Shown here in pieces: positions 24,391 to 63,211 of a stretch of 64,000 nt of DNA. Source of the DNA: Amphiscolops sp. MND2022 (lineage: Eukaryota); NCBI GenBank assembly GCA_964187785.1, contig OZ076411.1:31124001-31188000 (forward strand). Reading direction: 5' to 3'. Made by a program: the position numbers and the translations under genes. How positions within the stretch are numbered: position 1 is the first letter of the stretch; the number at the start of each line of letters is the position of its first letter. The notes beneath the pieces were generated by a model. The model had not been told where the DNA came from. It searched no databases and saw only the letters and a list, made by a program, of their open reading frames with translations.

Positions 24391-24539
24391 GTATGTAGTT
24401 ACTTTTGGTCAAAGATATTTATCTGAACATATAAAAAATATAAACCGTAGTCGATTAGCTGCATGGACATTTTCACATCCAGTGACGTAAGGTCAACTTA
24501 TCATCTCAAGCATTGACTAACATTCGATTTGCATTTCAG
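24391..24539 (+). other. Predicted spliceosomal intron (149 nt, phase 0)
   Basis: Donor GTATGT, branch TGACTAAC at 24514-24521, acceptor TTTGCATTTCAG. Joins DFNWTKERLT to VLFHHMFL. Confidence 0.7.
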
Positions 24540-25232: not shown

Positions 25233-25410
25233 GTAATGCCCACAATTAATCACTTGTGATCTAAGAGAATCTTTAGAAGTACATACATGTAGACAATGGG
25301 ACTAGCATAGTATTCATTTCTCCTAACCTCATAAGCTGCACGCTCTACATGTATTCGTTGATCTAGTCTCTCATACTCAAGGTATTATATGGATTTCGTT
25401 GTTGTTATAG
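25233..25410 (+). other. Predicted spliceosomal intron (178 nt, phase 0)
   Basis: CAG|GTAATG donor and TTGTTGTTATAG acceptor. Joins LQGIRKQ to VQSLDWF. Confidence 0.6.
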
Positions 25411-31193: not shown

Positions 31194-31449
31194 AAAACCT
31201 GCTGCAACGGCTGTTGCCAGGGAGACCTGTGATCCCCAACGGTGAAACTCGTTGTCATCGTTACGATGAGTCCGTTGATGAGTAAGTTGTTGGCTGTGTT
31301 GTCATTGGTCAACTTGAGCGTTTGCAAAGACGGTATTCAGAGCTTGGTATATTTCGTAAGAATCCGGCTCTATGTCCTGATCTGGTTTGGTATAGTTGTT
31401 GTAAAAGTGTAGATGATATTGATTATAGGTATTAGCGTCCCAGTAGGGG

Positions 31450-33023: not shown

Positions 33024-34536
33024 GTCGCGATTTTTTCGCCTGTGTAAGTGTCTATTGAACTCTTTCTACACATTCGTCTACGTTTTTCTTGTGTGAAACA
33101 CGTTTTGGGCAATTTTCCCACGTTTGATGAATATTTTCAACTTCGGGGTTCCGTTGTAGCCCACCGGCCTTTCGGTCCATCATGGTTAAATTAGTCGCTC
33201 TTGGGCTCTCTTGTAGCCCAGAGGACCCCCGGTCCACCATGGTGTAATTAGCTCTCCCCTGCGTTTCTACCGTATTTTGGATAGAAGGGAGTACTTTCTC
33301 AGCTATCGCTGTGGTAATTTCGTCTTGTATCTGAGAATTGAAACTAGATTTGATCTCATTGAGTTCCCTGGAAATTTGATTAGCAATTTCATTCCCAGTC
33401 ATTCTAGTAGTCTCTATGATCATTTCTCTTATCTCTCTACTGTTTGTATTTAGTAGTGATCTGATATCCTCTCCTGTTAGATCAGAGTTTTGTTGTGGCC
33501 TATTGGAGACCAAATTTAGTTCATTTTCACACTAATCATTCCTCTCCTCTCATCCCTCGAATGACTGCCTAACATTATATCAACGTTTTTCACATCGGAC
33601 AACAGGTTCAACTGACTAGAACGTCTTTTGTTAGCTCGTTGCTTTCTGGTGGACGGCATATGGAAACTTGAAGTTTTCAAGAGTCAATTAACAGAACAAC
33701 GTAGGGTAACAAAGAGAGAAGGTATTGAGCAAGTTTATCACGAATCAGTATCTCAAATTGTATGTTTCAACATTGAATTCACTTATCTCCCTTCGGACTG
33801 AAAGTCACTGCTATTTATACTTAATACTGCCTGACTAGCTAAAATTAGGGTGTCATGTTATTATAAATAAGTATTGCTTGTTCCCGTTTGCCTGACATTG
33901 CCTGACATTTAAATGCTGTCATGAACGATTTGTCAGTTAAAATACTATTACGGACTTAAAGTCCACATGGCTACAGCACAGTATACATAAGCATTAGAGT
34001 GAAATTAAATAATACCACGGCGGACTCACGGTCCGCGTGGCTACAGTAAATGTATATTAGTACTGCGCTGTGATTGGCTGTTACTACGTTGGACCGCGTG
34101 TACAGCTAGCTACAGGAAACGATCATTTGAACTCGTTTCCTGCTTTGTGCTTACTTGTACGTTTTAGTTTAAACATTGAATCGCATTAAAGTCCAGCAAT
34201 TATACAATCCTGATTAATACTGCTTTATCTTAATAATCTACCAAATACAAAGAGGTTTTTCAAACCATGATGGGTAAACACATAAAATAATATTTTGAAA
34301 GCAATTTGCAAGCCGAATGACTCATGAATTAGATATAAAAGTTTGTTGTAGCTAAATCCACTAATGGTCTCTTATGGTTAAATGAACTTTAATTTAGTAG
34401 TGAGTTGAACTGGTTGTAGACTGTTGTCCTCAGGGTCTATTACGGTTCATATGGGTCATACTTCATGCGGTGGGTTAGGTGCGTTGTTTCCTGCCGGTAT
34501 TTGGTAGAAAACCGTCACAGGCGGCAGCCTGCGACA
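33023..34536 (-). repeat. 5' LTR (1514 bp)
   Basis: Collinear with 18985-20443 plus an extra internal repeat unit of about 55 bp; followed directly by the PBS. Confidence 0.92.
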
Positions 34537-38970: not shown

Positions 38971-40326
38971 AAATTATATGTATACAGATGTGTGTGTGTA
39001 CATGCGCATGAATTTGTTGAGAAAAGGATAGTGTCCTACAGGTCGAAGTATACTTGGACTAGCATCAGAAATGGGGGCGGGGTTCCTCTTTACCAAGCAA
39101 CGAAATGTGAAATCTGGTTTTTTTAACTGCTAATAAAGCAATCAATGCATTTCATGGTAAAAACGTGTGCAATGGTTTTTTTTCTAAATTCAAAATAGTC
39201 CTTAACTGGCAAAATGTCCAAATTGTTAGTCTTACTGAGAAAATTGACCGTACTTGGCCTTTAGTTCAGCGCTCTTGTAAATACATCACCAAAAAAGTGC
39301 ATCACTAAATAACTAAATGCATCACTAAATAAGCGCCTCTGACTAACTCATGTAGTTTAGACGGTTTGTCCGTTACGCCAAGCGAGAAGGCATTTGAACA
39401 CGTTTCCTTCCCGCATGTGCGTTTGGTGTCCGATATGAGCACTGTATATAAATAAAAGATGACAACTTGAACAGCAATTTACAAGTAGAATTGTAATACA
39501 ATAACTTCAAATCTAGTTTTAATGGGGGAAAAAGTTTACAGCTTGTTTTATGGCGTTTCTTGCCAGTCCAGGGGATGGTCGCCGGGAAGGCCCTGTGGTA
39601 ATTGTAGGAGATAGAGTACCAGTTATCATCGCATGCGGTAGCCTACGACACTTCATTGCACAAAAATTCACCAAGCAGGCAGTTATTCTTTTTCAACCTT
39701 CGGGATCTTCGTACACTAGAGTAACAAAAAGCTAAAAGCAATCGGTTTGGCTATCAACATTTTTCAAAGCGCGAAATCTTTTGTTATATTCATTTCACGA
39801 AAAAGTTTCAGGTGCAAACGTCACTTACATTTTGATCAAAACTACCACTATATTTTTGTTTCGCAATCGAATCAAAATTCAAAAAGTTATATCACATTGT
39901 ATTTCGAGGAATTTTCAATCTAAAAAACCACCAGTCTGAAGACAAACCTCCTTTGATCATTTTGTAGCTATGATACCGTTCTTTAACTTTCATAATTAAC
40001 AATTTGTCTGAAAAAGCGTTCTTAAAAATGAATACCCAAAAACACTTGTAATTTCGTAACAGTATTTTACGCAGCAAAAACTAAAGATTTCGCATTTTGT
40101 GATCATTTTGCATTGTATATTGTTACGGATTGTCTGGCGGAGATTGTGCAAAAAGTGGATCATTAAATGTGAGATCATCATCTGACAAAAAAGTTGCCAC
40201 TGTATTAGTCGAGCGCAGTTTACGCTAAAATGCGCCGACTAAAAACATCCATCGTGAACTCAACGTTCCTGAAAAGCACTGATAGATTGATTGGTTGATT
40301 GATTGATTATTTGATTCTATCCCACT

Positions 40327-42670
40327 TACTCCTAAGAGTAGTTTACATAGGGGTTTATTCATATTACTCCCTAAATTGACCACAAACAACTCTTTATATG
40401 ACGAGGCTTGAATTGTTCAGATATTTAAATAAATTTCAATTGTCAATCTTATACGGCTCTGAACTATGTAATTTGCAGTATATGATCGTGGAAAAATGTC
40501 ATTATGAAGTTACCGTTCGACAATTGACCATTTTGAACTTCGAATAATTTGGTGAGCAGTGACGGGCAACTTTTTACTTCATTTCGAGCAAATATTCATT
40601 TCGTTGATTTATTTTCTTATTGTTTTTTTCTGACATTAGGTTAACAATTGCTTAGTTTTTTAGGAACTTCTATTTTGGCCGATAATGAGCGGTTTTTATT
40701 GAGGTCTAGTTTAATAAAGCAAATTAATATTCAAGCAAATTAATAGTACGGGACTATTTGTTGAAGAGCTCAAATTTTCAAACTTTTACTTGAGATTATT
40801 TTTCTGTGACTGATATGATCGCTATTCAAACTCAACTCTAAAAATTGTTTCCACGAAGTCGTTTTTCTGGTATCAATTTTGCGTTATCAAATACTGGATT
40901 GCAATAGGCCAGCACAACGTCATGAATCTGACTTCGGCCTGAAACAGCTTTCAAAACATGTTCCTGAAACTCTTTTTAGTGAGCGCTTTTCAAAATGTTT
41001 TCACGGTATGTATTGAATAAATTTAGGTGTTCGATTTGGAAATCAGCTAAACCTAGCTACCGCTTCTCTTCATCAGCGGCAACGATGGCTGAATTAACTT
41101 TCAGACTGAACCGACAAGATAACGGAAACTTTTTCATTGAAAAATTCCTGTTTCTAAAAAGTATGCAACCTGTTTTATGTTTTCGCTGGTGTCGATGAGT
41201 ATTCATACACAAGAAAACGATAAAAGCATAGAACAGCAAAAAATGGGAAAACTATGCAAAGTCGCGGTAATTTTCCCCGGAAAAAATCAGTTTGCAGTAT
41301 TATAAAAATAGGTCCCTGCGGAGCACAGTAGTATTTCTGCTTTTAGGCTTTCATGTTCAATAATATAAGCATATCTTAATCATTTATACAGCGCACAATT
41401 AATCACTACCAGTTTACACTGCCTTTAATTCTTATCGGACTAAAGAAAATATAACTACTAAGCGTAGGCGAAGTTTCGCATTCGCATTTGAACGCAACTA
41501 CTCCTAAGAGTAGTTTACATAGGGGTTTATTCATATTACTCCCTAAATTGACCACAAACAACTCTTTATTTGACGAGGCTTGAATTGTTCAGATATTTAA
41601 ATAAATTTCAATTGTCAATCTTATACGGCTCTGAACTATGTAATTTGCAGTATACGATCGTGGAAAAATGTCATTATGAAGTTACCGTTCGACAATTGAC
41701 CATTTTGAACTTCGAATAATTTGGTGAGCAGTGACGGGCAACTTTTTTCTTCATTTCGAGCAAATATTCATTTCGTTGATTTATATTCTTATTGTTTTTT
41801 TTCTGACATTAGGTTAACAATTGCTTAGTTTTTTAGGAACTTCTATTTTGGCCGATAATGAGCGGTTTTTATTGAGGTCTAGTTTAATAAAGCAAATTAA
41901 TATTAAAGCAAATTAATAGTACGGGACTATTTGTTGAAGAGCTCAAATTTTCAAACTTTTACTTGAGATTATTTTTCTGTGACTGATATGATCGCTATTC
42001 AAACTCAACTCTAAAAATTGTTTCCACGAAGTCGTTTTTTTGGTATCAATTTTGCGTTATCAAATACTGGATTGCAATAGGCCAGCACAACGTCATGAAT
42101 CTGACTTCGGCCTGAAACAGCTTTCAAAACATGTTCCTGAAACTCTTTTTAGTGAGCGCTTTTCAAAATGTTTTCACGGTATGTATTGAATAAATTTAGG
42201 TGTTCGATTTGGAAATCAGCTAAACCTAGCTACCGCTTCTCTTCATCAGCGGCAACGATGGCTGAATTAACTTTCAGACTGAACCGACAAGATAACGGAA
42301 ACTTTTTCATTGAAAAATTCCTGTTTCTAAAAAGTATGCAACCTGTTTTATGTTTTCGCTGGTGTCGATGAGTATTCATACACAAGAAAACGATAAAAGC
42401 ATAGAACAGCAAAAAATGGGAAAACTATGCAAAGTCGCGGTAATTTTCCTCGGAAAAAATCAGTTTGCAGTATTATAAAAATAGGTCCCTGCGGAGCACA
42501 GTAGTATTTCTGCTTTTAGGCTTTCATGTTCAATAATATAAGCATATCTTAATCATTTATACAGCGCACAATTAATCACTACCAGTTTACACTGCCTTTA
42601 ATTCTTATCGGACTAAAGAAAATATAACTACTAAGCGTAGGCGAAGTTTCGCATTCGCATTTGAACGCAA
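40327..42670. repeat. Near-identical tandem duplication of about 1.17 kb
   Basis: 40327-41497 versus 41499-42670 shows only a handful of substitutions and indels; the ORF track shows identical ORFs offset by 1173. Confidence 0.95.
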
Positions 42671-44125
42671 GCGAAGCTCTCGGCGAACAAATAATTAACA
42701 CTCGTTCGCGTCATCTCAATAACTTTGCGTACGAAAGCATAATTACAAACATTTGCTCGCTTCATCTCAATGAATTCGGGGTACGAATGCATAATTACCA
42801 CTCGCTCGTTCCATCGCACGAAAAACGAATTGTTGTCGGCAGCTTGGGAAATTTAATTTTCACTTCTATACTTCTGTGGTAATCTACACCTAACATGAAA
42901 ACATTCATAAAATAAAATTGTGTATTGTTGTCAAAGTTAAAATTATTTTTTCCTTCTGGGGCTTTTTTATCTAAGACATTTCTTCTCCAAAAAATGTTTC
43001 TGTGGCTAATTTTTGTGCAATAACTTCGAGTATAAAAATGAAAGATAATGTTCACAAACAATGCGGTTGAGAGAACATTTTCTTTCCCATATGATTAAGA
43101 GCGGATAACACTTTTTTCTCATGATAAAGAGAGGATAAAAAAGTTGCTGGGCCATAAGTTGGAAGCTGATTTTCTGTGACCTAATTTTGTATCAAATAAA
43201 AAATCCACCATGGAACACAATATCTCTAACGCAGTTCCATTCGATGAGCCTTAAATTTCGTATCTTCGTTAGTGCACATCGAAACTTGAACAAAAAACTC
43301 CGGGAGCATTTTTCTCCGAGACATTTGATAGCTCACATTGACTGCATGCCATACACCCCTCCTCTCCACGACACCTGTTGCGCCGGACATATCACTCGCT
43401 AAAACTTTGAGTGGAAGCTCTCATGAAAGTTTCTTTTCAACATAACTTCGTTTGACTTGGATTCAAAGAGAGCAAGACACCCGCTGAGCAACATGATTAA
43501 TTCCGCCCCGCGACAAGATATTTCGGGCTCGTACTTAACTGATGCGCCTTGGCAGAAAGTTGAAAAAAATCTAAAATCGCATAGAACAGTCAAAAATCGG
43601 AAAATTTCATGATGCGCACTTTTCTAAAAAAAACTTCCGGTTTTAAATAAAATCTGCTAAGCCGCTAATTTTCTCATTCAGCGGACCTGTTTTCAGCCAC
43701 AAAAATTTTCACGAAATGAAAAATAGGGCCAATGAGTGACCCTTTTATTGACCCCAGGTTGCGCCAGGCGTGATAACGCCAGAAATAAAATTGAAAGCTT
43801 TTATCAAGGTTCATCGATTGATGCCTAATATAGTTAAATTATTCTGGGCTTACCTTCCGACACCTATATGAAGTTTTATTCAATTTCCAACAAGTTTTTT
43901 TTTGCTGCTGGGGACATTTTTTACTTAGGAATTTCTTCAATATTAAAACTTTGATGTTTGCACCTCAAGACAGCTAGCTGAGACTTGTTCTCTAACTGCC
44001 TTTGCGCCATCCTGATGTCCTTTTTTTGCTGATGAATCTCCTTTACACTGTATCAAATACGCTTGACCTGAATTGAGAGCGAAATCAACGTTGTGGATAT
44101 GTGATATAACAAGTATTTAACTATA

Positions 44126-44299
44126 CACTCAACTCCGCTTCTAACGATTGCCTGGGGACCGGCGTTTTTTAATCGTTATATCCGAATATCGTTATAGGTG
44201 AAAATCGTTATATACTAGCATCGTGGCCGGGACCGTGAAACTCTATCGTTATAACCGGAATATCGTTATAAACGTAATCGTTATAAACGGAGTTGAGTG
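44126..44299. mobile_element. Tc1/pogo-type MITE (174 bp)
   Basis: Terminal inverted repeats (TIRs) CACTCAACTCCG / CGGAGTTGAGTG, each flanked by TA. Internal ATCGTTATA is repeated about 6 times. Confidence 0.8.
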
Positions 44300-44496
44300 T
44301 ATCACATTAAGTATTTAACTTAACTGGCAGAGATGACAAAAGCAACGAACACGACAGTGAAAGATGAGCCATCGCCGAATAAAATCCGAACTTCGATGAA
44401 TCTCAATTAGTACCCAGTCTTCTCAAACAGTTTAGGTAACTTGTGCCAAAGGTAACTTGAAGACAGATCCAGCAAACTCTAAAAAACAGAAAAAAT

Positions 44497-44600
44497 ACAT
44501 TTAATTTTTTGTTTCATTTGGTTTTACTGACATTGATGAAATGCATTTTTTCTTAATTTTTCAATGTCAGTAAAACCAAATGAAACAAAAAATTAAATGT
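44497..44600. repeat. Perfect 40-bp inverted repeat with a 24-nt spacer
   Basis: 44497-44536 is the exact reverse complement of 44561-44600. Confidence 0.95.
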
Positions 44601-44681
44601 TGACATTTGGTTTTGGAATGAAACGGTTTACTTCGCAGAGTATGACGTTTTCAAGGATTTAACATGGAACAATGTTTTCAG

Positions 44682-45163
44682 CGTACATTATATCAGCCCA
44701 GTCGTTCTCTATCATTGGCATCCTGTTGTCTATTGCCTACATGGTATTGACTATCATGTATGTGGGGGATGTGCTGAGAAACAAACACATCGGGCGTATT
44801 CTTGCAATTGTGGGCGCGGGCTGTCAACTAGGACACGGAGGAGTTCTCATGATCAGCGTGCCCCCTATGCTCAGTGGGGCCATAGCCGACGCCCCAGCAG
44901 GAGAACCTGTGACGGTTCAGTGGAGTTACTACATGGGGTATGCAGATGCATTTCTTTGTCTGGCTTCAGGAGGACTTTCTCTGGTCGCAGGTTTGATCGG
45001 TGACAGATTTGGTATCAAAAAAGACAAAGCAGTGGAAGAGGAAAAGAAGAAAGCGGCCAAGAAACAGCAGAAGAAAGAAAAAGTTGCCAAGCAGCAGAAA
45101 AAAGTTCCGGGCAAAGAGCATCAAACCAAATATGAAGAACCCACCGAAATTGTTGACATGTAG
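44682..45163 (+). CDS. Host claudin/PMP22/EMP-like gene, last exon (TM2-TM4 and a Lys-rich tail)
   Basis: TTTTCAG acceptor at 44675-44681. Three hydrophobic segments, WSYYMG before TM4, KKEK-rich tail, stop at 45161-45163. Confidence 0.75.
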
Positions 45164-45373
45164 TTAAACAATACTTGTTGTACATCACTAATGCTCTCAA
45201 CTGCTGCTATTGGCATTAACATAACAAAAATGAATTAAGCTATCGTAATTTTAATTGAATATTTCAACTCTCGAGTAACCCTTTAAATAAACTGTTACAC
45301 TGATGTTACACTGAGCCTCAGTGACTGAGGTATACATTTTATGAGTTGTGAAGATAGCTAATGCTACTGGAGG

Positions 45374-45585
45374 CTATACTGCACGGCCGTCGCCCGCATT
45401 ATTTATATTGGGGATCGGGGTGTTCTCTTGATCTTGGGGAAACTCATCGTCATCGTCTTCCTCTTCATCCGACTCGCACAGTCCGTCCAGTTCTGGCATG
45501 GGAAAGCGGAGAAGAGCGGCTACTCCCGTTAGGCGATCCAAATATTGGCCTGTCTCGTGTAGACTTGAGAGCATACGAACTTCGC
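45374..45585 (-). CDS. PELO: Pelota (Dom34) last coding exon
   Basis: GEVRMLSSLHETGQYLDRLTGVAALLRFPMPEL plus an acidic tail matches the pelota C-terminus ([31 protein letters not shown], from memory). GTTTTCCAG acceptor on the minus strand. Confidence 0.85.
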
Positions 45586-46166
45586 CTGGAAAACAGCATC
45601 GCTGTATAATGTCATAGGGAACATTTTGAACACGGAAACTCTGAGACAAAAGCATTTTTTGGTGATACACCTTGAGTGTCAACATTTTTTAATACCTAGT
45701 AGTGACAAAATACGCTGTATACAAAAAAACTAATTCCCAAAAATCTGGAAATTCATCACAAAACCCAACTTAACCTCTCCGTTCTCGCAAAAACAGCTTC
45801 AACGAACTTAAGATGCTTCCTAAACCACTGATTCAAAGAGCTGAATATTTGTGAGAAACTCCAAAAACATTTCACTGCTGACAAACCCATCTGGCCAAAA
45901 CTCCAGAGAAAAATTCAGACTGGAAGGTAACCCACGGTGTTTGATAAGCCACCAGCAACACGAGTTCACAAATAGTAATGTTAAAATACAAATGAGAAAA
46001 CTTGATTTAAATACTGATGAAAAACCGAACTTATAGAAAAATTTTGTTGAAACTACGTCGTCGAAGTTTAACCACAAGTAACTTACACCAAATAGCTCCC
46101 TTTATACCTGGGGAGCTACTACGAACAATAAAAAAGAGGCTCTCTGTTGAGAAAAATAAGCCCCTG

Positions 46167-46450
46167 CAGGGCACAGTATTATTTCTGCTTTTAGGCTTTC
46201 ATGTTCAATAATAGAAGCATATCTTAATAATTTATACAGCGCACAATTAATCACTACCAGTTTACACCGCCTTTAATTCTTCTCAGACTAACGAAAATAT
46301 AACTACTAAGCGTAGACGAAGTTTGGCATTCGCATTTGAATGCAGGCGAAGCTCTCGGCGAACGAATAACACTCGTTCGTTCCATCGCACGAGAAACGAA
46401 TTGTTGTCGGCAGCTTGAGAAATTTAAATCTCACGCTTATACTAACTGCC
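46167..46450. repeat. Diverged copy of the repeat at about 41310-41497 and 42485-42880
   Basis: Shares CACAGTA(T/G)TATTTCTGCTTTTAGGCTTTCATGTTCAATAATA... through GTTGTCGGCAGCTTG. Confidence 0.85.
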
Positions 46451-49736: not shown

Positions 49737-50068
49737 AGTCCTGTATTGTCTTTTAGAGACTTAGTGATGACTTCTCAGCTGTTTAGCAGTCTTGACAGAG
49801 CGGATCATCGGATGCTGTGAGCAACAATCCTGGTGAGTTTCCTTAGTCTTCAAAACCAAGCTGATTTATACTTCAATTATAGTTCTTATGATTTTGTTAT
49901 TCAGTAATTCCAATCATTATGTATGAAGGTTATTTAAATGTCAAATTCCGATTTGAAGAATAAACATTGAATGTCATTTAAAAGTTAAGTATTTGAAAGG
50001 TTGAAAGAATCAGTCCAAGTATGTGAAAGTTCGTCCTCTCTCAACTGGAGTTGTTTCAGTATGGTACA
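49737..50068 (-). repeat. 3' LTR (332 bp)
   Basis: No difference from 62880-63211 found by eye; directly preceded by the PPT. Confidence 0.95.
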
Positions 50069-50376
50069 CTACCTCCCTTCGAAACACTTCCGGTCCTGTG
50101 AAGAACCATCATACGGATGGAGATAGTGACAACTTCAAGTGAAGATTCCAATTGAGAATAAAAGAATATCCAAAGAAATTGTCCAGTGAGAAGAGAATAT
50201 CCAAATGAAATAGGAGGAAGAAAGCCAGCACAAGTATCCAAAAGCCCAGAGGAATATATGTCGATAATCCATTTTTTGTTTTTAAGGCAAGCCCAAAAAT
50301 ACTGCATTGAATGTTTACAGAAATTATAAATGAAGTCCAGTTTTATGATTAGAAAGAAAACATGAAAAACGGGAAG

Positions 50377-52737
50377 TCAAGCTGATGTGGATGATTCCAT
50401 TTGAGTTTGGGTGACCAAGTTGCCAAAGCCGTTAGCGCGTTGCAGCGGTGAACTGCCGGGATAATTCCCGGGAAAATGGTTTGCCTCATTAGGACCGAAG
50501 GAACTGAACATTTTTGGATTCGGTTTTGTATGAAAAGATATATCCACGGCATCAGATGTTTTGCTTGAAGATGCACACTGAAAATGATAACGGTCACCAT
50601 GTTTGGATTGAAGTGACGGTATTTTGTTTTCGTGTTCTGTAGGGACATCTACCATTTGACGAAGCGGCAGTTTTCGTTTCAAATCATCGAAGATCTTGGG
50701 AACACGAGTTGCCAAATTGTAGCGGTGATAAATGTACATGAATAACAGGTGAAGAGCCGTTGAAAAGACGAAGACAGTCAGTGTGAGCATGAACGATACC
50801 TTGAAGGGTACATACTGATTGAATTCTTTAACAAGGGACGGCTTTAACAATTTCATATTTGATGCGAAAGGTCGCGCAATTTCCACAAGATGCTTGACTT
50901 CTCGTGGCTTCGGGCCTCTAGCAAGTTCCGTTTAAACTTGTTTCAACAACTTCACTCCTGCTTCGGTTCGGCTATTGAAAAGAGGGAGATCGTCCAATGG
51001 CGGCACTTCCATAATCAATGACTGTAGGGGATTCGGAAGAGAGACTTCCAATTTGATCGCTGGTACCTGTGTACAGCTCGATAAATCTGAACGAATTTTG
51101 ATATTTGGTGTGATAATTTGCATCCCGCATTCTAACGTAATCAGGCAGATGTGACAGCCTGGAAAAGATGTTGTTTTTGTAGAGGCTGATGATGCCATTG
51201 ATTCCCGAAAATTGAACTTGTTGCTTGCTGACGTGATAAGCCAAATGCCGAAGCCAAGATTCGTAGCTTGTTCGATTGTCGGTAAGTTAATAATTTTAGT
51301 GTCACATACTGAAAGAGCTTCCATGGGCGATTCGAAATATAAGGTGGCCAGACAAGACGAATGTCCTATCTCTGTCGGAATAGTCTCGGAACAGATTCGG
51401 TATCGTGAAGAGCCGAGGCATCGATCAACTTGACTAGCCGACAGTGGCGAAGATTCCATAAGATTTTCCGAGATTGCTAAGAAGGGAACTTCAATATCCC
51501 ACATTAAAGCAGACTCTGAATCATCTGGGAAAGGCATCGGAATAAGTTTTGCTTCAAAGAGGCTGAATACTGTTTGCCGTGACGCGAGAGGAATGTTGAG
51601 GGTTAACAGTAAACCTTCAGAGACAGTAACCGCATCGGCAAGCAGACGCGAATCGTAATAAGATAAGAGATCAGACATCGGGATGGCCAACGAAAGGCGA
51701 TCGCCGGCATTAGCCCTATCTCTAACTACACTCTCCAATATCACCAGTAGCGAATCGAGCGGTACTAAGGACATCGGGACGTGTCCCCGCAAAAGGACAG
51801 GTATAGAGTTTAAAACATTTATGCGAAAGGCAAATAGAGCTGCGCGGAAACTTTTGACACTTGCATGGATCATCGAAAGTAAGGACGACAAAGTGTCGAA
51901 GTTGAAATTTAATTGCTGGTTAGAGAAAAGCATTTGATCGCAATCGCGCAAAGCATGGAAATTTTTTTCAAAAACTGCAAATTGTTGTTCGATCAGCGCC
52001 CAATTTTTATTCTGAGTGGCAATCATGTCGGCTTGTATGTCGTTGATAGCAGCAAGTTCATTTTCGATTAGAAAAAATTTGTTTTCGGTACTACTCGAGA
52101 ATTCGGTGACGTATTGAGATAGGATATCTTGGAAATCGGAGAGGCGTCGAATATTCTCGGCATTCGCTTTGGACTGGTCCTGGCAAGTTCCGAAAATTCC
52201 TTGTAGACCGCACGAGCCAGAACTTCCCAAAGCAACGCCACCACCGAAAAGTCCTACAGCGGCAAGTGCTACCGCACCAGCACTAGCACCACGTTTTTGG
52301 CGGGATGGTCGCTGAGGAGATGGCGGAGAAAGAAAGGCCGAAGTTTCATTTCGTAAAAGTATCACATCGTTCGCGGCCTCGTTGATTTCATGATTTATTT
52401 GTACAAGAATCCAATTAACGTTGAATGAAGTCGAATTGGAATCGAAGTTGGTAGAAAAATTAAGAGGACAAAAGAGCGAAGGCAAGTCCCACATCGAGCC
52501 AAGACGGTCGATCGTTCGTTCGATGTCATGTTTCAAAGCAAAATCGTAAGTCGGAAAAGGAATCATAAATTCCACTGGAACGATCTTTTCGGCCAACAAG
52601 ATTTTGCCACGCTCGTGAAATAGGATGCCTTTTTCTAATAATTCATCATGATTGTTTGACGGTTGCAAATTGGAATCCCATTCAAGTCGAACTGAAGCCG
52701 GAGTGAAGAGTAAAAGAAAGACAAGTTGTAGAAGCAT
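50377..52737 (-). pseudogene. env: env-like class I fusion glycoprotein (about 786 aa), interrupted by one in-frame TAA
   Basis: ATG at 52737 with signal peptide MLLQLVFLLLFTPAS. Furin site RQKR at 52302-52291, followed by the Gly/Ala-rich fusion peptide GASAGAVALAAVGLFGGGVALG. Heptad-like helix, Cys-rich region, TM SFMLTLTVFVFSTALHLLFMYIY. ORFs 50932-52974 and 50377-50886 share a frame across TAA 50934-50932. Confidence 0.88.
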
Positions 52738-53071
52738 TACTGTGCGAGCATCCGGAAAGACGAAATGTGACGAGAGTAATTTTCTTTTTGGCGACGACAA
52801 CGACAGTAGCCCAATGGGCGTCGTTTCGGACAAAGCGAAAGATGTCAAATATGGTATTTTGGACCGGAATGTTAACAAAAGCCTCTGATGGAATTTTTCG
52901 GCAAACAAAGTGAAAGAAACGTAAACAGTGTGATGAAACGACGAGCGAAAAGTAGGCCTTGGAATGTTGGCCAACGAAAGTATTTAAGGTGGTATTTGCC
53001 CTTGTTTGACAATTGGCGGTGTGTTTGAGCTCGTACTTCCGATAGCATCTGCGGAATGTTTCGACTAGGCG

Positions 53072-53156
53072 GTAAGCCTTAGTAAGGTCAAGTTTTTGCG
53101 TAGATCAGAAAACATGGACCGATGACCTCAAACAGAAATTGGCTTTTTTTTCTCAG
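53072..53156 (+). other. Predicted 5'-UTR intron of the antisense transcript (85 nt)
   Basis: GCG|GTAAGC donor and TTTTTTTTCTCAG acceptor, 25 nt upstream of ATG 53182. Confidence 0.5.
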
Positions 53157-53181
53157 TTGTAATCGAGCATTTCAGCAAAAA

Positions 53182-53514
53182 ATGAAGATTTTGTTAATTT
53201 GTTGTGCCCTGTGGATCATAAATGGCAATGTGAAAGCATGCGAAGTGCGGCTGTGGAGGGGCCAAGAAATTTTCTGTTATCCGAATGGGACAGCTTTTGG
53301 AACTGGAGCCAGCCGAATTTGGGTGAGCCAGAAGCCCCTGCTCTGCTCAGTAAAGAAAGAGCATGGACAAAAGCAAGGCCGAAATGGTTGGATGATAGCA
53401 GGCATCATTATTTCTGTCGCCGGCTTTATGTTTTGTATGTGTCAGTGTTGCTATGCATACTTGGGCAAGAGGTTGCTGTGCAGTAACCAAGAAAATGACC
53501 AACCACAAAACTAA
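53182..53514 (+). CDS. Antisense small type-I membrane protein (110 aa)
   Basis: AAAAATG start, signal peptide MKILLICCALWIINGNVKA, Cys-containing ectodomain of about 50 aa with an NGT sequon, TM WMIAGIIISVAGFMF, juxtamembrane CMCQCC. AATAAA at 53721. Confidence 0.7.
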   Translation: MKILLICCALWIINGNVKACEVRLWRGQEIFCYPNGTAFGTGASRIWVSQKPLLCSVKKEHGQKQGRNGWMIAGIIISVAGFMFCMCQCCYAYLGKRLLCSNQENDQPQN

Positions 53515-53748
53515 GTTACGACAATTGTGAAACTGTTGGTGCCTTAGCAAAGGCACATTCGTCGCTTTTGTTTTTGTGTTAGGTACTGCTGTGTACTAAA
53601 AGTTTACTGTACTGTAGTTGTGGACTGAAAAGCGCAGATACTTTTAGATAATTTAACTCTTCTTGGCGTTGTGGTTAAACACAGTACTGTTGACATAGAA
53701 AACTAGTGAGAACAAAAGAGAATAAACGTCGTTGTATTCCAGAGAACT

Positions 53749-54901
53749 ATGGAACCTTGCATATATACTGCTCTCTGTAATGATAGATCAACCAATGTGA
53801 CTAAAAATCTAGGACTGAGTAAAAGAGAAAAAGAAAAATGGGACAAAAGGCTCAAGCAGTTTGGAAGCGCTGATGGACAACTGTTCTGGCAGGGCAAAAA
53901 GGTACCCACGGTGCAGCAATTAGATGAGGTCTTGCGGCCGATACATCAGTCTGCAGGTGGGAAGCACTGCAAAAGCGTAAACATTCTGTGTAAAGCTGTT
54001 AGTGGTACAAACTTCGCGCTACCGCCGTTCCTGGGCGGTATAGAACGGGCATGTACATTGTAAGTAGAAATACAACACCATATACATTCAGAAAATAGTC
54101 CGCTTTTTTTGGGAAAGTATCGGAAGTGCTTTTTTTGTGAAGGTTTCTGCGTGATTGTCCCGAATGCTTTTGGACCTTTCAAGCGGGCAGTCATTGGGAA
54201 CAAGCGACGGCTGTATCAGAGGCAGCGAGAAAGGCGTTATGTGACTCCCTCCAATTGGAACACGTAAAAATTCCCGACAAGTATTTCTCAATTGGGTTAT
54301 TAGGCTTGGGTATGCCAGGCATTATGGGCTGCTCGAGTAAATTGGCCGAGGGCGGCGGCAAATGTTGGTTTTCAACAATTTTCTACTTGCTAGTGGGAAA
54401 GAAGAGCGGTAAGTGGCGAACAAAATCAAAATTATATAGATTTGGAGGAAAGTGCAGTGGAAAATGCGTTTCAGACAAAAAAAGGAACGCCTCCGATTTA
54501 AATCGGATCCGAGACGCTATTGCCAATCGAATGAAGCAAGAGGATTTTGAATCGTTATGCCTCGGAGTTCTCAAATACACAACAAACCCATGGGAAATTG
54601 AAAGCGTAAGGACCTCGAAACAGGCCGTTTCAGAGCCATGGGTGAGTAGAAGAAAAAAGGAAATACCGTCAGTATTGGGATACATGTTTTGTTGTGTTGA
54701 CAGATGTTAGGAACTGCCATGCTACTAGGCTGTGATATTCTGGTCTTCTGGCAGTATGAAAGGAGAGGTGGTTGGATTAGGTACCCCGCAGCCAACAGAG
54801 GGGCGGCAACACGGGAAGCCTTTCTGATTCACTGTGTCCATTCCGAGAAATACCACATGTTCCACTGTGAACCGATAATTGACTGGCCTATTGAGGAGTA
54901 A
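53749..54901 (+). CDS. Antisense three-exon gene (53749-54059, 54143-54641, 54704-54901; 335 aa): HHCC zinc-finger-like domain plus OTU-like cysteine protease
   Basis: Introns 54060-54142 (GTAAGT...TTTTTTTGTGAAG) and 54642-54703 (GTGAGT...TGTTGACAG) give a stop-free 1008-nt CDS. Splicing completes H-x6-H...CPEC. OTU-like motifs GGGKCWFSTIFYLLVG, IRDAIANRM, W-MLGTAMLLGCDILVF and FHCEP. AATAAA at 55058. Confidence 0.8.
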
Positions 54902-55504
54902 GTAGGAAAGTCAAAAATGAGATTTTTTTGGAAAATAGGGGTCAATGTAACTGAAAGACATGCTTATAGGAAGGAAAAGGCTTATAAGAGGCCGTACGAG
55001 TCGCAGAGTAAGGCGGCCAAGAATGCCCGACCGAGATGGGTGTAAAATCTGCAAAGAAATAAATGAACAATCATCAATATCACCTCAAATTTCATGCAAT
55101 AAGCTGGAATCAGTCTCAGAGAATTTGAATCAGTGGAAAGGGACGTTCATAATAGGAGGCGCAAAAGCGCAAAACTAGGCAGAAGCGTCAAAGCCATCGC
55201 AAAAAGAAGCTTTCGGCGGAGATGCATGAAAAATGAGCCAATCGCACAAGGGCGCCGTAGGGCCACAAAAAATAATTTTTTGTCTTGTATTTGCAAATGG
55301 GGGGCCCCAAACGGGCGAGCGCAAAATTTTAGGAGGCGACACTACAAAACTAGGGGCAATTTGACCTTTTGACCTTGAATTTTTGACAGTAAAAGGTTGA
55401 ATCAGGAAGAGTGAAAAGTACGTGGAAGAAAGAAGCCGAACTCATAAAAAATTAGAGTAGGAAAGAGTTTTCTGAGGGCGAACTAGGCTGCACAAGAGCG
55501 CTCC

Positions 55505-55950
55505 TCATCGAGAGGTTTGAATAATGTTGATAGTAATAATTATATCAGAAAAAACTTGATATAAAAGTGCTAAAACTGTAGGCCAATGTAATCGATCATA
55601 GCCAGAGCCAAGTCTTGGAATGCTAATTTCGTTGATATTGTTGTTGAGAATGTGCTGTTTTAGTGCAAGCAAGCTCAATTGAAGCGTGTCGTACGTAGGC
55701 TTGTGGAAAAAACGTCTTTTTGTAACTAAGTTATAGACAAATCGATTGCGCGATGCGTCATAGTAAGCGACCAGTGTTCCAGGAGGAACGCATTTGGATG
55801 AGTAAAATCTCATCTGTTGAAGGGCTGGATAACAGCATGCAATGATAGATGCAAGCCCTTTCCGCATAGCAAAATCGGAGGAGACGCAATGTGCTATAGA
55901 GTTGGGAGAATCTAAAATGTTGCCGGAAGAAAACCGAAAAATAGGTGTAA
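55505..55950 (-). CDS. TARG1/OARD1-like macrodomain at the C-terminus of pol
   Basis: GNIL...SIAHCVSSDFAMRKGLA, RFVYNLVTKRRFFHKPTYDTLQLSL and ISIPRLGSGYDRLHW align with the OARD1 motifs [42 protein letters not shown] and LSMPRIGCGLDRLQW (recalled). Confidence 0.9.
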
Positions 55951-58900
55951 CTGTTGAATCAATAAGCGAGTTTACGTTATTAGGATTAGACTGCGAGGAA
56001 AGTCGCTTTTTTAAATGGCGAAAGCCGTAACGAGAACGGATTTCACGTTGGTCTGCTAAAATTTGCTGCGGACTACGAGATGGTTGTTCCTTAGGTTGCG
56101 CGGAAATACCCGAACTCTGGGTTGGAGTCGAAACAAGTTGCCTACTTCTTTCACACGATTCAAGAATGTTTTGTCGTTTAGTAATTTGATTTGGCTGAGG
56201 GCGGCTGGACGAAGAACTGCCAGCGTCTGGTTGTGGCGAAGATCGGAGAAACCCAAAATTCAGTTGGTTCGAACGCTCTTGTGAACGTATAGCTCGCTCT
56301 GTCTGTCGAAGAATAAATTCATTTGGAGCAGGACGCGGTGGAACTTCATGTTGATTCGATTGTGGGGGACCCGCGTCCTCGTGAGAGGAATCATCCGAGG
56401 TGTCAGGAGTCATGCGAGGGCTAGTAAGAGGTACCGGTCCCTCAGGTATGACGGGATCCGGAGGTACCACATGTCCACCAACCGGAGGAAGTGGCGCAAC
56501 CGGTATGACCGGAGCGGGTGCCATCGGTAGGGGAAACGTCAAGCCGACCGTTACAGGAGGGATATCCTGCTCCTCAGATAGTCCTGGCATCTCCTGCGGG
56601 GGAGGATCAAGTAAGCTCGGAATTGCTTCGTCAAAGAGTTGCGGTTCGCCTCGAAATCGCCCTAAATGCGGGTCTCGACGGAAGTCATCAGGGTTAATAT
56701 CACTCAAATCATCAACTGATATTGAGGCGAAACTGTGCGCAAACGTATTCGATGAACACATTGGGTAAAATTCGTGCCAACTTTACGGATGATATAATTT
56801 GAATTCGTTAGAACTGACTCAACACGATATAACGGTAGCCAAATTGGTAAAAATTTACTCGAAAAGTCTGATTGCGTCATCAATTTAGGATTTAAAAGTA
56901 AGCAATAAGAGAATTTAGGCAACGGTTGAGCGTCAGCCTTGTAATCGTAGTACGCGCGATATTTATTGTACATGATAGTAAGTCGTTGTTTCGTGTCGTC
57001 GAACTTTTTCAGCATAGCATCTTGCAATGTTTGAACATATTCATTGGTAGGTTCAAGGCGTTCTAAGGTCGTGTTGCCAAAGCGGACGTCCAATGGTTTG
57101 ATTGGCTGACGTCCATGAAAGATGACAGTCGGGCTACAGCCTATAGCGAAATGATACGAAGTATTGTGGATGAATGTAGCCAAAGATACATACTTGTGCC
57201 AATCATTCCATTGCTCGTTCGTGTTCAATTTCAAAATACGCTTTAAGGCACTATGTGACCGTTCCACTACACCAACTGTCTGCGGGTGTTTTAGACTAGC
57301 ATGTTCAAGACAAATTTCGAGCATTTTTGTAAGTTCGTGCATCAGTTCCGAAACAAAGGCTGTTCCAAGATCAGAGAGAATTTTTGACGGCATATAGCTA
57401 TGTTGGAAAAATATGGTCGTGAGTGCACGAGCGACATTATCAGCGCGACCATTTGTCAGCGGTATCGCAAAGAGATATTTACTGAAAACATCTACTGCTG
57501 TGAGAACGTACGTGTACATTGGTGATTTCAAAGGACCCACCAAATCAATTTGTAGCATATCACCGGGATAGGATTGCAAAGACGAAACCGGTTGTAACGG
57601 CATTTTGATTTGTTTCGTAGGTGCACGTTTCAATTGTAAGCATTGTAAACAATTTCGAACCGTAGATACCAAAAATTCTGTGAAATTAGGAAAATAAAAC
57701 CGTTTTCTAAATTCCTCTATCGTTTTGACAATTCCCAAATGACCTGCGGTGCGGGAATGATGCAGGCGGTAGACAACTTCCCGCCATAAAGATTTTGGTA
57801 CGCAATACTGTTTATGTTTGATTTTTCAACAATCATCGAAAAATAGCCTGTACAAAACATTGTCTTCCACAACAAGACGGTCAAATTGTTTTCGGTATTT
57901 TCGAAGAGCAATTGGTAGATTAGGCGAGGCGTCGACGTGGCCTCGGGATTTCCATAAGAGCACTTCTTGGATAGTTTCGTCAAGAGATTGTTCGTTTGCT
58001 AGATCTAAAGGTTGTGTTCGATTCGGTAAGTCATCAAGAACATCATGAAATTCATTAGTGGCGATTAGGTTGATTTGCCTAATCGGCAAGAAGGACATCA
58101 GTCCAGTAACCACTAGTTCATTAGGATCATTTGCTAAAGTGGCGTTTGCTAAGTATTGTTCATATAGGCCATGTGCTTGGAGTTGAGAAATGAAATTTGC
58201 GTCTACTGTTAGCTGAGAAGTACTTGAAAAAGGAATCATTTCGTCAATATTTGAAAGCGAAACGTTAGGAGTTTTTGCTTCAGTTTCTACTTCGATTTCT
58301 CGAATAGGTACCCGATCAGTCAGTTTGATTGATAAGCAAAGACTAGGGTCAGTTTGCATGCGGGACAAAAAGTCCGCAGCTGAATTAGCTTTGCCAGGAA
58401 TGTGCGCAATTAGAATATTAAAGGACAGAACACGGTCGAGACAGTTCCATAATGACGGATGTATACTTTTTGATTGAAAAAACTGAGTTAAACTACGATT
58501 ATCCGTTAGGACTAAGGCAAGAAATTCCTTATAATAGACTGAAAATTTCAATTGCGTATCATTGAAGAGTCGAGAACCAAAGGAGACGGGCGCGTATGAT
58601 TTCTTTTGTTGTCCTGTTTGGTCTATTAAGTAGTCCTCAATCATCAGAACGAAACCTGTACCGTGATAACTTGCGTCACAAAGCAAAACATATTGTAAAC
58701 CTGGTTTTGGAAGGCGGAGTGTTAAGTTAGTCGCATTTATCAAATCCATTTTCAAAGCTTCGAGCGCGTCCGTGTGAGCATTACTAATGATAAATTCAGT
58801 GTCTTTGCGGAGAAGTTTATAGAAAGGTAAAAGTTTTTGATTCAAGTCAGGGATAAAATTTCTGAAAAATTGAACAAAACCAATGAGACGTTTAACTTGA

Positions 58901-60885
58901 CGTACAGTATCAGGCATTCGAATTTTGTCCAAAAATTTCTTGATTTTGTCGGACTCTGGAGTGATCCCTGCAGGCGTGATTGTATTGCCTAGGTAGTCGA
59001 TTTTTGTAGTTCCAAACTCACATTTGTGAGCAGAAAGTTTAAGACCTGATGCTCTAAGACAGTCAAAGATTTTTGTCAAAGTAGGAATAAGTTCATCAAA
59101 ACATGTTACTCCTGCGGCAATGTCGTCCATAAATTGGGTACAAACATTGGCCGCTAAGCATTTATCCAAATAGTGTTTGATGAAAGAACTAAACCCCGTG
59201 ACGGATTTATTAAGACCTTGTGCTAGGCAATTATAGGCAAATGTTCGCGAACCAAAATTAAATGCTAGCAATTGAACCGAAAGGTCATCAGCCATTTGAA
59301 CGCAATGATAGGCCTGCGAACAATCTAGCTTACAAAAGAGTTGTTTGCCCGCGAAATGGTTGGTAGCATCAGTCATATTGGAAATTGGAAAATTGCTGTT
59401 CAAATAATCATGCCTCAAAAGATGATTAACGCGACGAAGATCTATGAGTAGGCGTAATTGTCCTGATGGTTTGCGGTGAGCAAATATTGGACTACTGTAC
59501 TTTGAATGCGAGAGTGTTGTTATTATATTGTAATATTGAAGTAATGCTAGCTCAATCAAAATTTCATCACGCAGATGAATTGGCGCCGGCGGACCTTGTA
59601 CATAAACAGGAAGTGGATTTGATGGCGTTAACTTGACCTTAAGTTCAGTATTATAACCAACATCGAAACGATGTTTAGCAAATACATCATGGTATTCGAT
59701 CAGAAATTCTTCTAATTTTTGTTTTTGGTCAGCGGTCAACACACAAGAATCCCATGTGAACTTTTTCAAAAATGCGTCCCTGTCATCAGGATTAACTTTC
59801 GGATTCATCTTTTCTAAGCGTTGGAACTGCAAAATTTGGTCATAGATATCTCGTTGCAATGATGTTAAGTCTGACAAATCGGAGCACGTTTCTGGCGTGG
59901 GAAACCATAGTTTTTCATAATTCGGCGGAGGTCTGCCAGTGAGAGTGTCATGCTTTTTAAAATGAACATCATGAATAAGTTGATTTAATTCATTTTCAAA
60001 ATTGTCAGGATTGCGTAGTTTTGCAAGCGAAATAAGTTGAGGATCAATTTCCGCAAGATGTTCCGCTTGAGATTCTGTCAAAATTTCAAAATATCCCACA
60101 ATTGTTTTATTACTAAGAGTAATTTGGTGGTCGCACAGATTGAGCGCTGACACGTAAAGTTTGTTATTGTCCAATTTACTCAGAGAAGATGTTAAAGCAA
60201 GATGGGGTTTGTCCTCAATATTCTCATTGGGAACTACAATACCCGTACAATTCTTCAGGTAAGCATATTGGTCATCCAATTGACATTCAAGGAGTTTTTG
60301 CGATTGCGGGCTAAGATGAACTTTATTCGTTAACAAAATCGGTATTCGCTTGATTTTTGTTGTCAGTGTGCGTTTTTTGCCTCGTTTAGCGGAAATTTCG
60401 TTCAATTGAACTGTGAGATCAGGCAATTTCAACAAATTGTTTGTGGGGTCAATAGTTATATGAAATTTCTTGAAAAAAGTATTTCCCAAGATGACACTAT
60501 TCATCGTAGGAAGAATCAGAAAGCTATCAGTAAAAAAATGCGGACCAATAGAAAACGAAATTTTTGCCTGTTTATCGATCACAATTTTCTGGCCAGATGC
60601 CATCCGGACCGATGTAAAGCTAGGCGTTTCCAGTATGATCCCGTTAGGATTCTGTTTTTCTAACTCGTCAAACAGGTTTTGTGGCAAAGCGTTTGCGCAT
60701 GATCCTGTATCTATAAGAGCTCTACGTTTAGTTAATGACGAAAATTTAAGTCTGACGTAACTAAGATTTTCACCTTCCAAAGGTAAAATGGCGCACAATG
60801 CATCTAGTTTTTCATGAGATTGTAAGTCGTTATTACATGTGTCGGGCTTGTTTATGGGCTCTGGTTGCTTGTGCGGCGTATTTAG
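55505..60885 (-). pseudogene. pol: pol: protease, RT, RNase H, integrase, Pro-rich linker, macrodomain; three lesions
   Basis: LIDTGSCANAL; LDCSQAYH; FMDD; LCDASY; HHSRTAGH...CLQC; QIDLVGP; SDLG; VVERSH. In-frame TGA at 57828-57826, a 1-nt deletion near 56715, and an apparent in-frame RNase H deletion near 58513. Confidence 0.93.
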
Positions 60886-62167
60886 TTTTTTTGATACTGA
60901 TTAAAGGGCATCTGGGCACCTCGTCGCGGTGCGGGACCCACCACTGTACAATTAGGTGCCAGATGGTTCGGATAGCCGCACTTATGACACGTAACACTAC
61001 TTTGCTGAGTGTACGGCATATAGTTAGGATCCGGCGTAAACACTTCAAATGTGGGCTGTTGTGTATCCACATTAGGTGTAGGGAACGAAGGTTGTCCCTG
61101 ATTAGCGACAGTATTTTGCCAGGATTGATTATTGAAATTTTGGTAATTTGGTTATATGATTGGTAACGTGGTCGCTGACCCCATGGTTGACGTTGAAAAT
61201 TTGAGCGATTGCCGCGGTAACCTCTGCCATTGTTTCCGCGGTAGCGTCCACGATAACCGCCGCGGTAACCACGATTTTGAGAATTTTGACCGCGTGAGTT
61301 ACCAAAAGAGCCGCGTTGAGATTGTGAATTTTGATTATGGGAAACATTCTCTGTTTGTAGTTTCTGAACATTTTCAAGTTGATTAGAGAGTGCATTATTA
61401 CGCTCTTCAAACTTTTTCGACATTTCGTTCAGACGGTTGTCAAGAGCTTCTTGACTTGTACTAAGTTTAGTGAGCGCGGTTACCAAGGTATCTGTTACTG
61501 TCGGTCCGATTTTACTAAAGGCGTCCATCGGAGAATCGTCAATTTTGCATAAATTATGAATCGTTAATTGTTTCCTCGCAAAAATACAAAGATCCTCCAC
61601 AGATGTGGTTTCCGGTTGTTCAAGTAGTTTCGCCCTTAGCCAACCTGGCATATTTTTTATAAATTGTCGTCGTATCTGTATAGAACGTGCTTCTTGAGCA
61701 GATCGAAGCTGCTCTGCATTACGGGCAGTTTCTTGGTCAAAACGTGTTTGTTCAACCGCTGCATCCGGTGCAGCTCCGTCTATTGGTGCGACCGGAACTA
61801 AAGTTGGATCAGGATACGCCTTCAAAGCTTTAGTTTGCAAAGTGACCAAAAAATTCTCAGGAGTATCCGTTTTCGAATCGAACTTTAAATTTTCTAAGTT
61901 AAGTACATGTAGCTCTTGTAAGTGCGGATTACAGAACCTATCGCGTAAAGCAGTCAAAGATAGATCGAGGTCAGCCCGTGTGGCATCCGGTAGAGTTTGA
62001 AAAAATCGAAGCGCAGCATCTCGAAGATGTAATTGTAAAAAATTTGCTTGTTGGGCGTTTGCAATACCAGCCACTGCCAAATAGCTTCTCAAAAGATGTT
62101 CAAATTCACGGAAACTTTCTTTCTCTCGCCCGGAGTAAGGTTTCAGTTGTATTTGTGCTTGAGCCAT
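60882..62167 (-). pseudogene. gag: gag (capsid, Arg/Gly/Asn-rich region, CCHC knuckle), with one 1-nt deletion near 61150
   Basis: MAQAQIQLKPYSG...LQLHLRDAALRFF. The knuckle CHKCGYPNHLAPNC lies in the -1 frame (60882-61070); adding one A in AACCAAATTACC restores NQNYQNFNNQSW. Confidence 0.9.
60885..60891 (-). promoter_or_regulatory. -1 ribosomal frameshift slippery heptamer A AAA AAC at the gag/pol junction
   Basis: CAA AAA AAC TAA ends the knuckle-containing gag frame. The -1 frame is open from here (LNTPHKQPEP...) into the protease without stops. Confidence 0.8.
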
Positions 62168-62879
62168 ATCTATTCAGTGACGGAGCGAGCACGAGTACGG
62201 AAACTTTGAAGACGAATTTGAAAGAAAACAGTGTGTGTTCGAAAGAGCCGAATAAGTTACTGAAAATATAGGCAAAAAGCGATTGTTTAATAGGTCAAAG
62301 AAAACGAAAGTTAAGACAGAAAGACGCAGAGAAAAATTTCCGAAAACTCGTTGATTGAAAGAATGAAACAACCCATAGAAAAGGGTCTAAAATAAGCTGA
62401 GAGAATAAAGAGCCTAGAAGAATTAAGAAGCGTTAGGGTTGAGCAATGAAAATGAACATGAATGAATTCGACAGTTATGAAACATCGTATCAATTTACTG
62501 CATCAAATTGGCTTGCACTTACCATTTTCACGTCTGTTATCCAAACGAATAGTTGTATTCAGAAAATCCAGTCTTGTCTCGTTACATCTAAGTCATCAAG
62601 TCTGCTTGAAAGTCATACCCATCCAAGTTGTTGATGTGATGAAATCTCCAGTAGTTGTGCGAAATCCACTTTTTGGAAGAAAAATTTATAGTGTAAGATG
62701 AAGTTTTTTTGAAGTTCTGTTAGTCTTCAGAGATACTGCCGTCGAGTATACTGTTTCAGGGATGCAGTCCTGTGGAGTTGCAGTGGTCGTCTGGGCGTGG
62801 CCTGTGCTATGTTTCCTCACGAAAAAGATAAGTAGTTCGAGGAAAGATTGCAATTGGATCGTTTTCCTTCCTGTCACCA

Positions 62880-63211
62880 AGTCCTGTATTGTCTTTTAGA
62901 GACTTAGTGATGACTTCTCAGCTGTTTAGCAGTCTTGACAGAGCGGATCATCGGATGCTGTGAGCAACAATCCTGGTGAGTTTCCTTAGTCTTCAAAACC
63001 AAGCTGATTTATACTTCAATTATAGTTCTTATGATTTTGTTATTCAGTAATTCCAATCATTATGTATGAAGGTTATTTAAATGTCAAATTCCGATTTGAA
63101 GAATAAACATTGAATGTCATTTAAAAGTTAAGTATTTGAAAGGTTGAAAGAATCAGTCCAAGTATGTGAAAGTTCGTCCTCTCTCAACTGGAGTTGTTTC
63201 AGTATGGTACA
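62880..63211 (-). repeat. 5' LTR (332 bp), with a TATAAAT candidate at 63013-63007
   Basis: Identical to the 3' LTR and directly followed by the PBS. Confidence 0.95.

Follow-up and report, generated by a model that had tools for sequence, protein, structure and literature searches.

The question raised by this locus is what kind of gene lies between pol and env of an LTR retrotransposon, on the strand opposite to both. The first-pass annotation of the window (the whole 64,000-nucleotide stretch of Amphiscolops sp. MND2022 DNA that was analysed) placed there a three-exon gene for a 335-residue protein, an integrase-like zinc module fused to an OTU-like cysteine protease. The element that carries it is young and has the traits of Ty3/Gypsy, namely LTRs, a primer site, and the order protease-RT-RNase H-integrase. 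Its parts, in window coordinates, are:

49737..63211, minus strand: env-bearing Ty3/Gypsy LTR element of 13,475 bp, flanked by a 5-bp target duplication (ATATG), the 5' LTR being followed by a TGG primer site
62880..63211, minus strand: 5' LTR, 332 bp, identical to the 3' LTR
60833..62173, minus strand: gag frame, broken near 61150
55505..60900, minus strand: pol, with protease, RT, RNase H, integrase, a linker and a weak terminal macro-domain match, broken near 58513, 57826 and 56716
50377..52740, minus strand: env-like frame with a hydrophobic N-terminus, a membrane segment and an in-frame stop near 50932
49737..50068, minus strand: 3' LTR, 332 bp

The env-like frame has no Pfam match; env is nonetheless a conserved long frame under constraint. 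The end of pol (55505-55960, minus strand), which follows a long low-complexity linker, is macro-domain-like (Pfam Macro, E 0.14) and varies more among elements than integrase does. Over 9.9 kb, 39 substitutions and 9 indels separate the window copy from its closest sibling, which has its own breaks. Elsewhere, long minus-strand frames lie at the start of the window (319-3356, minus strand), and other repeats occupy 18995-34510 and 40314-46443, with a long direct-repeat pair about 14.1 kb apart that encloses broken minus-strand frames, and with 1,173-bp tandem units.

The two introns proposed for the antisense gene, 54060-54142 and 54642-54703, are both GT-AG, and their removal does leave a stop-free frame of 335 codons from the ATG at 53749 to the stop at 54899-54901. 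The comparison with other copies gave a different structure. In the 1.07-Gb genome, the three proposed exons have at least 113, at least 151 and at least 150 matches, respectively. Eighty loci were fetched, picked for distinct scores, a choice that over-represents divergent alleles and includes some near-duplicates; boundaries could be projected in 77 of them, and all four exons were called in 71. In almost all other copies, the proposed middle exon contains a stop or a frame change at one place, which is due to a further GT-AG intron, 54409-54474. In the 63 copies where this intron was called as GT-AG, its length is not a multiple of three in 39, it contains an in-frame stop in 20, and it is open in 4; its frame is thus broken in 59 of 63 copies and open in the window copy by chance. 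The possibility that it is kept as coding sequence was rejected, since read-through in 4/63 copies is the same rate as that of the other two introns (5/65 and 4/68). From the projection of introns across copies, the gene has four exons and a product of 313 amino acids:

53749..54059, plus strand: exon 1, integrase-like N-terminal module with His66 (53944) and His73 (53965), the histidines being present in 61/62 and 62/62 rows
54060..54142, plus strand: intron 1, 83 nt, phase 2, projected GT in 69/77 loci and AG in 72/77
54143..54408, plus strand: exon 2, Cys109 and Cys112 of the HHCC motif, a linker and the predicted catalytic Cys178 (54363-54365), each cysteine in 62-63 of 65 rows
54409..54474, plus strand: intron 2, 66 nt, phase 1, GTAAGT..TTTCAG, GT in 68/77 and AG in 56/62
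54475..54641, plus strand: exon 3, helical part of the OTU domain with the conserved Glu246 (Glu in 67/69 rows)
54642..54703, plus strand: intron 3, 62 nt, phase 0, GT in 61/62 and AG in 71/77
54704..54901, plus strand: exon 4, OTU beta sheet with the predicted catalytic His302 (54863) and Glu304 (54869), and the stop (His in 56/62 rows, Glu in 59/62)

The 196 GT-AG introns called have a median length of 69 nt and a GC content of 33% (versus 47% in exons), and their donors and acceptors are typical in composition. This is a real, conserved, four-exon antisense gene, with an OTU-like product predicted.

Is the protein under constraint? The exon frames contain 46 stops in 16,913 codons, as against 958 and 848 in the alternative frames. 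Using 32 clean copies, 496 non-independent pairs were compared, of which 475 were saturated and 9 too close to use; the 12 pairs with dS between 0.2 and 2 gave a median dN/dS of 0.08 (0.06-0.11). The first-pass annotation had pointed to dN/dS and splice sites across copies as a means of checking the gene, and the low ratio and the conserved intron positions bear it out. The antisense alleles differ at up to 70% of their residues; the zinc ligands, Cys178, Glu246, His302 and Glu304 hardly vary, even between alleles that share only about 30% identity. Positive selection was considered as the source of the divergence and rejected, since silent sites are saturated and amino acids are conserved. 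Another argument had been that the gene is intact while gag, pol and env carry lesions. The lesions exist, but intactness in a single copy is uninformative, since by our estimate about six lesions in about 9 kb would spare a 0.94-kb frame roughly half the time. The evidence for the gene is its conservation across the family and not the intactness of the window copy.

Introns that are antisense to a packaged RNA read CT-AC there and so cannot be spliced out of it. That the introns persist for this reason had been proposed for the locus, and the presence of the same introns in copies on many contigs supports the proposal; the packaged RNA of this element would read them backwards, which would explain why they are retained. 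Of 60 ten-kilobase loci, 57 have env and/or integrase around the gene on the other strand. Three copies (L039, L066 and L075) have neither an env nor an integrase match in the 10-kb stretch and are possibly deleted or non-autonomous elements. Tandem internal duplication has given three loci (L083-L085) two or three copies of the antisense gene, and integrase occurs twice in L035.

The integrase-like H-H-C-C pattern seen at first reading is present and conserved, with the four ligands kept in 61/62, 62/62, 63/65 and 63/65 rows, and further comparisons suggest a likeness to the integrase module. Folded alone, the N-terminal part has the Ty3 integrase (Z 5.1) and the foamy virus integrase (Z 5.0) as top matches, the next, unrelated rows being at 4.6-4.7; in Foldseek, the top three matches of the model are all Ty3 integrase (E 0.17-0.34). 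Its profile also matches the N-terminus of the elements' own integrase, weakly (53%, E 1.4e-4). It is plausible, on these models, that the HHCC part resembles an integrase N-terminus, an assignment weaker than that of the OTU domain.

The usual OTU motif consists of an Asp-Gly-Asn-Cys loop and a His-x-Asp/Asn end. The Gypsy family has GGGxC and His-Cys-Glu, and so is without the usual Asp before the Cys and has Glu as the third triad residue. The GGGKC cysteine and the FHCEP motif picked out earlier are present in the window and conserved among copies, the Cys in 62/65 rows and the His in 56/62 at the predicted catalytic positions. The first motif alignment took the Trp of SEPW for the OTU Trp; on our reading, it is instead the conserved Glu of SEPW that fits, as the Glu of the OTU 'GGE' motif. 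The family does not reach the cut-off of Pfam PF02338, with the window exons searched singly and with two read-through copies, and a PDB sequence search with the family profile gave no OTU match and one unrelated coiled-coil match.

The structural model is of a sister copy (L010), whose three introns, all multiples of three, were read through, and not of the window's spliced protein, to which L010 is 45-71% identical per exon; its alignment comprised 128 exon and read-through rows. The mean pLDDT of this AlphaFold model is 78 and is low mainly over the three read-through introns. In a structure search of 48,161 chains, 24 reached a Z of at least 5 and all 24 are OTU proteins, the best being OTUD3 (Z 8.4, rmsd 3.6, 121 aligned); the range of these matches, 5.5-8.4, is middling taken alone. 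Foldseek gave no match at E <=0.001, and all 36 rows among the matches listed are OTU-type, with a best E of 2.8e-3. The match to OTUD1 runs over residues 155-347 of the model against 301-437, which, from the range end-points and assuming ungapped ends, would place Cys174 of the model on C320 and His341 on H431, the residues named as catalytic in OTUD1 (PMC5995870). The OTU fold with Cys, His and Glu in the triad positions, as first suggested for the window, is thus supported by the predicted L010 model. OTUD1, OTUD3 and the nairovirus OTU proteases have the same fold and the same Cys-His register as predicted here, but with 9-16% identity, and what sets the present protein apart is its Gly-rich loop without Asp, its Glu in third place and its integrase-derived N-terminus. 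Since the fold and the catalytic pair are predicted to be present and the motif and Pfam tests failed, the Gypsy-borne protein is filed as a divergent OTU-like family.

A link to OTUs that does not depend on the model came from a second group of elements. A Pfam OTU search of the genome gave 9 matches, four of which are an intronless frame adjoining a BEL/Pao integrase, on the other strand. The protein encoded by this frame has 107 matches in the genome, and all 10 loci read are BEL/Pao elements with the OTU frame antisense after pol:

L115-L132 (e.g., L127:1263-2147 and L119:5006-6046), plus strand: BEL/Pao antisense homolog, intronless, starting at or near the 3' LTR

These carriers measure 6.3-8.4 kb between LTR copies and have no ORF of env length. 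The BEL/Pao homolog exceeds the Pfam OTU cut-off (27.5 and 27.2 bits versus 23.3) and has a canonical loop (DGNC or xGNC) and a His-Val-Asp end. Its profile matches that of the Gypsy family (97.5%, E 7.6e-12, 253 columns) over a span that begins at the N-terminus, crosses the linker and extends into the OTU domain. By sequence, this match to a canonical, Pfam-passing OTU ties the divergent Gypsy protein to the OTUs independently of the model.

Relatives also turned up in the databases searched. A profile search of 1.84 billion proteins gave 278 matches, and among the 150 listed, they are short (49-242 aa) and exon-like, none of the 22 that were read being a spliced product. Forty-five of the 150 listed are less than 50% identical to the called copies, and for some (P0115, P0114 and similar) this genome offers nothing above 38% identity, or no match at all, which suggests that the family probably occurs in other genomes too. 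A protein atlas gave no usable match for either family, and none of 737 candidates from a word-indexed search proved to be a longer relative of the middle exons. One metagenome record (L141) has the same layout, with a BEL/Pao integrase on one strand and a zinc-module-OTU frame on the other; in two others (L142, L143), the OTU domain precedes the H2C2-DDE integrase, opposite to the order in Ginger1. In this genome, an open frame of 2,244 codons at L113 (G000:C13) contains an OTU domain and may encode a protein of Helitron type. Eight loci on viral contigs gave only a short generic OTU match.

What, then, would such an enzyme cut? A shared OTU fold names no substrate. We consider it probable that the gene encodes a deubiquitinase that protects element proteins or chromatin and is addressed by the integrase-derived module. 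As an unlikely alternative, it would be an active OTU-fold protease that cuts something other than ubiquitin, be it a host restriction factor, a protein of the element or another ubiquitin-like modifier. In favour of this, the third triad residue and the loop that precedes the Cys are unlike those of most OTUs, allele divergence reaches 70% of residues, and several viral OTU structures among the matches are bound to ISG15 and not to ubiquitin. Against this, the close structural neighbours are all ubiquitin or ubiquitin-like isopeptidases, and the BEL/Pao homolog has the canonical DGNC motif and a His-x-Asp end.

Where might such a gene have come from? Ginger1 transposases contain YPYY, H2C2, DDE and OTU domains and have 1-4 introns (PMC2836005); there, a YPYY/H2C2 integrase N-terminus and an OTU domain share one protein, with GT-AG introns (PMC2836005), much as an integrase-like zinc module and an OTU-like domain do here. 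In the BEL/Pao family, a segment that includes YP can be made out. The antisense gene product is, however, not a Ginger1 transposase: it has no DDE core, no GPY/F and no terminal inverted repeats, and it is a stand-alone antisense passenger of LTR elements. The CxxC and the catalytic Cys are only about 65 residues apart, no rve match was found in the gene with Pfam, and there are no terminal inverted repeats of at least 40 nt around it. The domain order and the introns would fit descent from a Ginger1-like transposase by loss of the DDE core. Single-protein queries did not find a DDE-containing donor in the genome and gave eight weak matches (E 0.003-0.025), including C2:28772371, C5:7576377, C13:4490623 and C13:2935522. 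A fragment of a captured Ginger1-like DNA transposon, or of a host gene, might also be carried passively. The Ginger1 domain set and introns fit such an origin (PMC2836005), but this explanation is highly improbable, given a dN/dS of 0.08, splice sites and catalytic residues kept across alleles 30% identical, retention in two superfamilies, and the lack near the gene of a terminal inverted repeat arm or DDE core. The passivity of the carriage is largely refuted.

The history of the gene differs from that of its carriers. Nine elements are close to the window in integrase (dS 0.07-0.21) and in RT (dS 0.07-0.19), but their antisense genes are only 46-57% identical and saturated at silent sites; taken overall, carriers with 95-99% identical integrases bear versions of the gene that are saturated at silent sites. 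In another lineage, integrases are 99.2-99.5% identical and antisense exons 62-73% identical. The same holds for a BEL/Pao pair (L127/L129), with 391/394 identical residues in the integrases and 164/293 in the antisense proteins. Fast protein evolution is ruled out as the cause of this divergence by the low dN/dS. Along the elements, identity drops from more than 90% to about 60% between about 52720-52975 and about 55500, and recovers on both sides. This tract contains a second antisense gene:

52720..55500: exchanged tract, with both antisense genes inside, left edge at about 52720-52975, right edge at about 55500
53182..53514, plus strand: second antisense gene, conserved, whose 110-aa product starts like a signal peptide and continues with a short ectodomain that contains Cys, a single membrane segment and a tail rich in Cys

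The motif of this small membrane protein is found upstream in 51 of 58 long loci; its gene has no Pfam match and has a pN of 0.33-0.43 versus a pS of 0.70-0.83. By these sequence comparisons, the OTU-like gene is exchanged among elements as a cassette with the small membrane-protein gene, with assembly errors possible at single loci. The simple reading is that exchange would occur by recombination in the near-identical flanks; its frequency cannot be inferred from a biased sample of loci.

Such shuffling of old alleles onto young backbones is as expected for a gene in conflict with the host, and cassette swapping suggests a counter-measure against the host. Another possibility, which we rate as quite improbable, is that the cassette acts between elements or cells and not on host defence, through allele-specific recognition, exclusion or a poison-antidote pair in which the membrane protein would be the partner. 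Both genes do move together in one tract, many old alleles sit on near-identical backbones in both superfamilies, and deubiquitinase domains are common in the toxins of reproductive parasites (10.1101/2023.02.08.527603). However, no small membrane gene was seen in BEL/Pao elements among ORFs of at least 150 aa.

A deubiquitinase acting for the element could work as follows. The antisense gene would be transcribed from its own promoter, presumably in the gap where it faces env head-to-head, and the transcript would be spliced by the host. The accessory enzyme so made from the antisense strand would consist of an integrase-type zinc module and an OTU cysteine protease (Cys178, His302 and Glu304); the integrase-derived module may supply its address. 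Ubiquitin would be taken off element proteins, or off proteins on element DNA, and these would be spared degradation or silencing. Old alleles would be moved onto young backbones by recombination in near-identical flanks. Only tentatively, we propose the more specific version of an exchangeable counter-defence cassette common to LTR retrotransposons of two superfamilies in one host, in which the integrase module brings the OTU deubiquitinase to integration complexes or to the DNA of the element, and many ancient alleles are kept that recombine onto active backbones.

How does this compare with known systems? The OTU and VTD deubiquitinase domains of Helitrons belong to the RepHel protein of these rolling-circle DNA transposons (PMC9741609); they too are ubiquitin-protease domains in transposons, but as domains of RepHel and not as a stand-alone gene (PMC9741609). 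Transposon VTDs are active on ubiquitin and NEDD8, and transposon OTUs are described in the available text of the same source as untested (PMC9741609). In plants, Grande gene23, RIRE2 and Retand have a conserved antisense gene that lies between pol and the 3' LTR and is driven by its own promoter (PMC7264820; PMC11963269); the element described here has one in the same region, with a promoter of its own predicted. Unlike the present gene, these ORFs are without known enzyme function in the available texts, which name TRP28 and SMC domains (PMC7264820; PMC11963269), and that of the Retand paper mentions no protease, ubiquitin or intron. In bdelloid rotifers, the same accessory enzyme gene (ORF3) is found in unrelated retroelement lineages, as here (PMC5408684), but these are esterase and exonuclease ORFs, and the main text mentions neither OTU nor introns (PMC5408684). 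The main text of a survey of env-Gypsy elements (PMC13524379) contains no mention of OTU, antisense or macro. Within openly available papers, Repbase aside, the literature search found no LTR retrotransposon described as carrying an OTU gene.

Transposon OTU domains have so far been known only as parts of DNA-transposon proteins, according to the available text of PMC9741609, and the antisense extra genes of LTR elements have so far been without known enzyme function in the reviews covered. Here, the accessory gene is stand-alone, spliced and, by prediction, enzyme-like, and is of a kind overlooked by annotation that is naive to strand and intron. Gypsy and BEL/Pao elements have it in common, and its polymorphism is like that of an arms-race locus. 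Knowing the substrate would show how the host restricts retrotransposons via ubiquitin, and dozens of natural alleles are at hand for testing. If the proposed counter-defence cassette is real, it would be the retrotransposon counterpart of the viral immune-evasion deubiquitinases and would imply an unknown ubiquitin-based host defence against retrotransposons.
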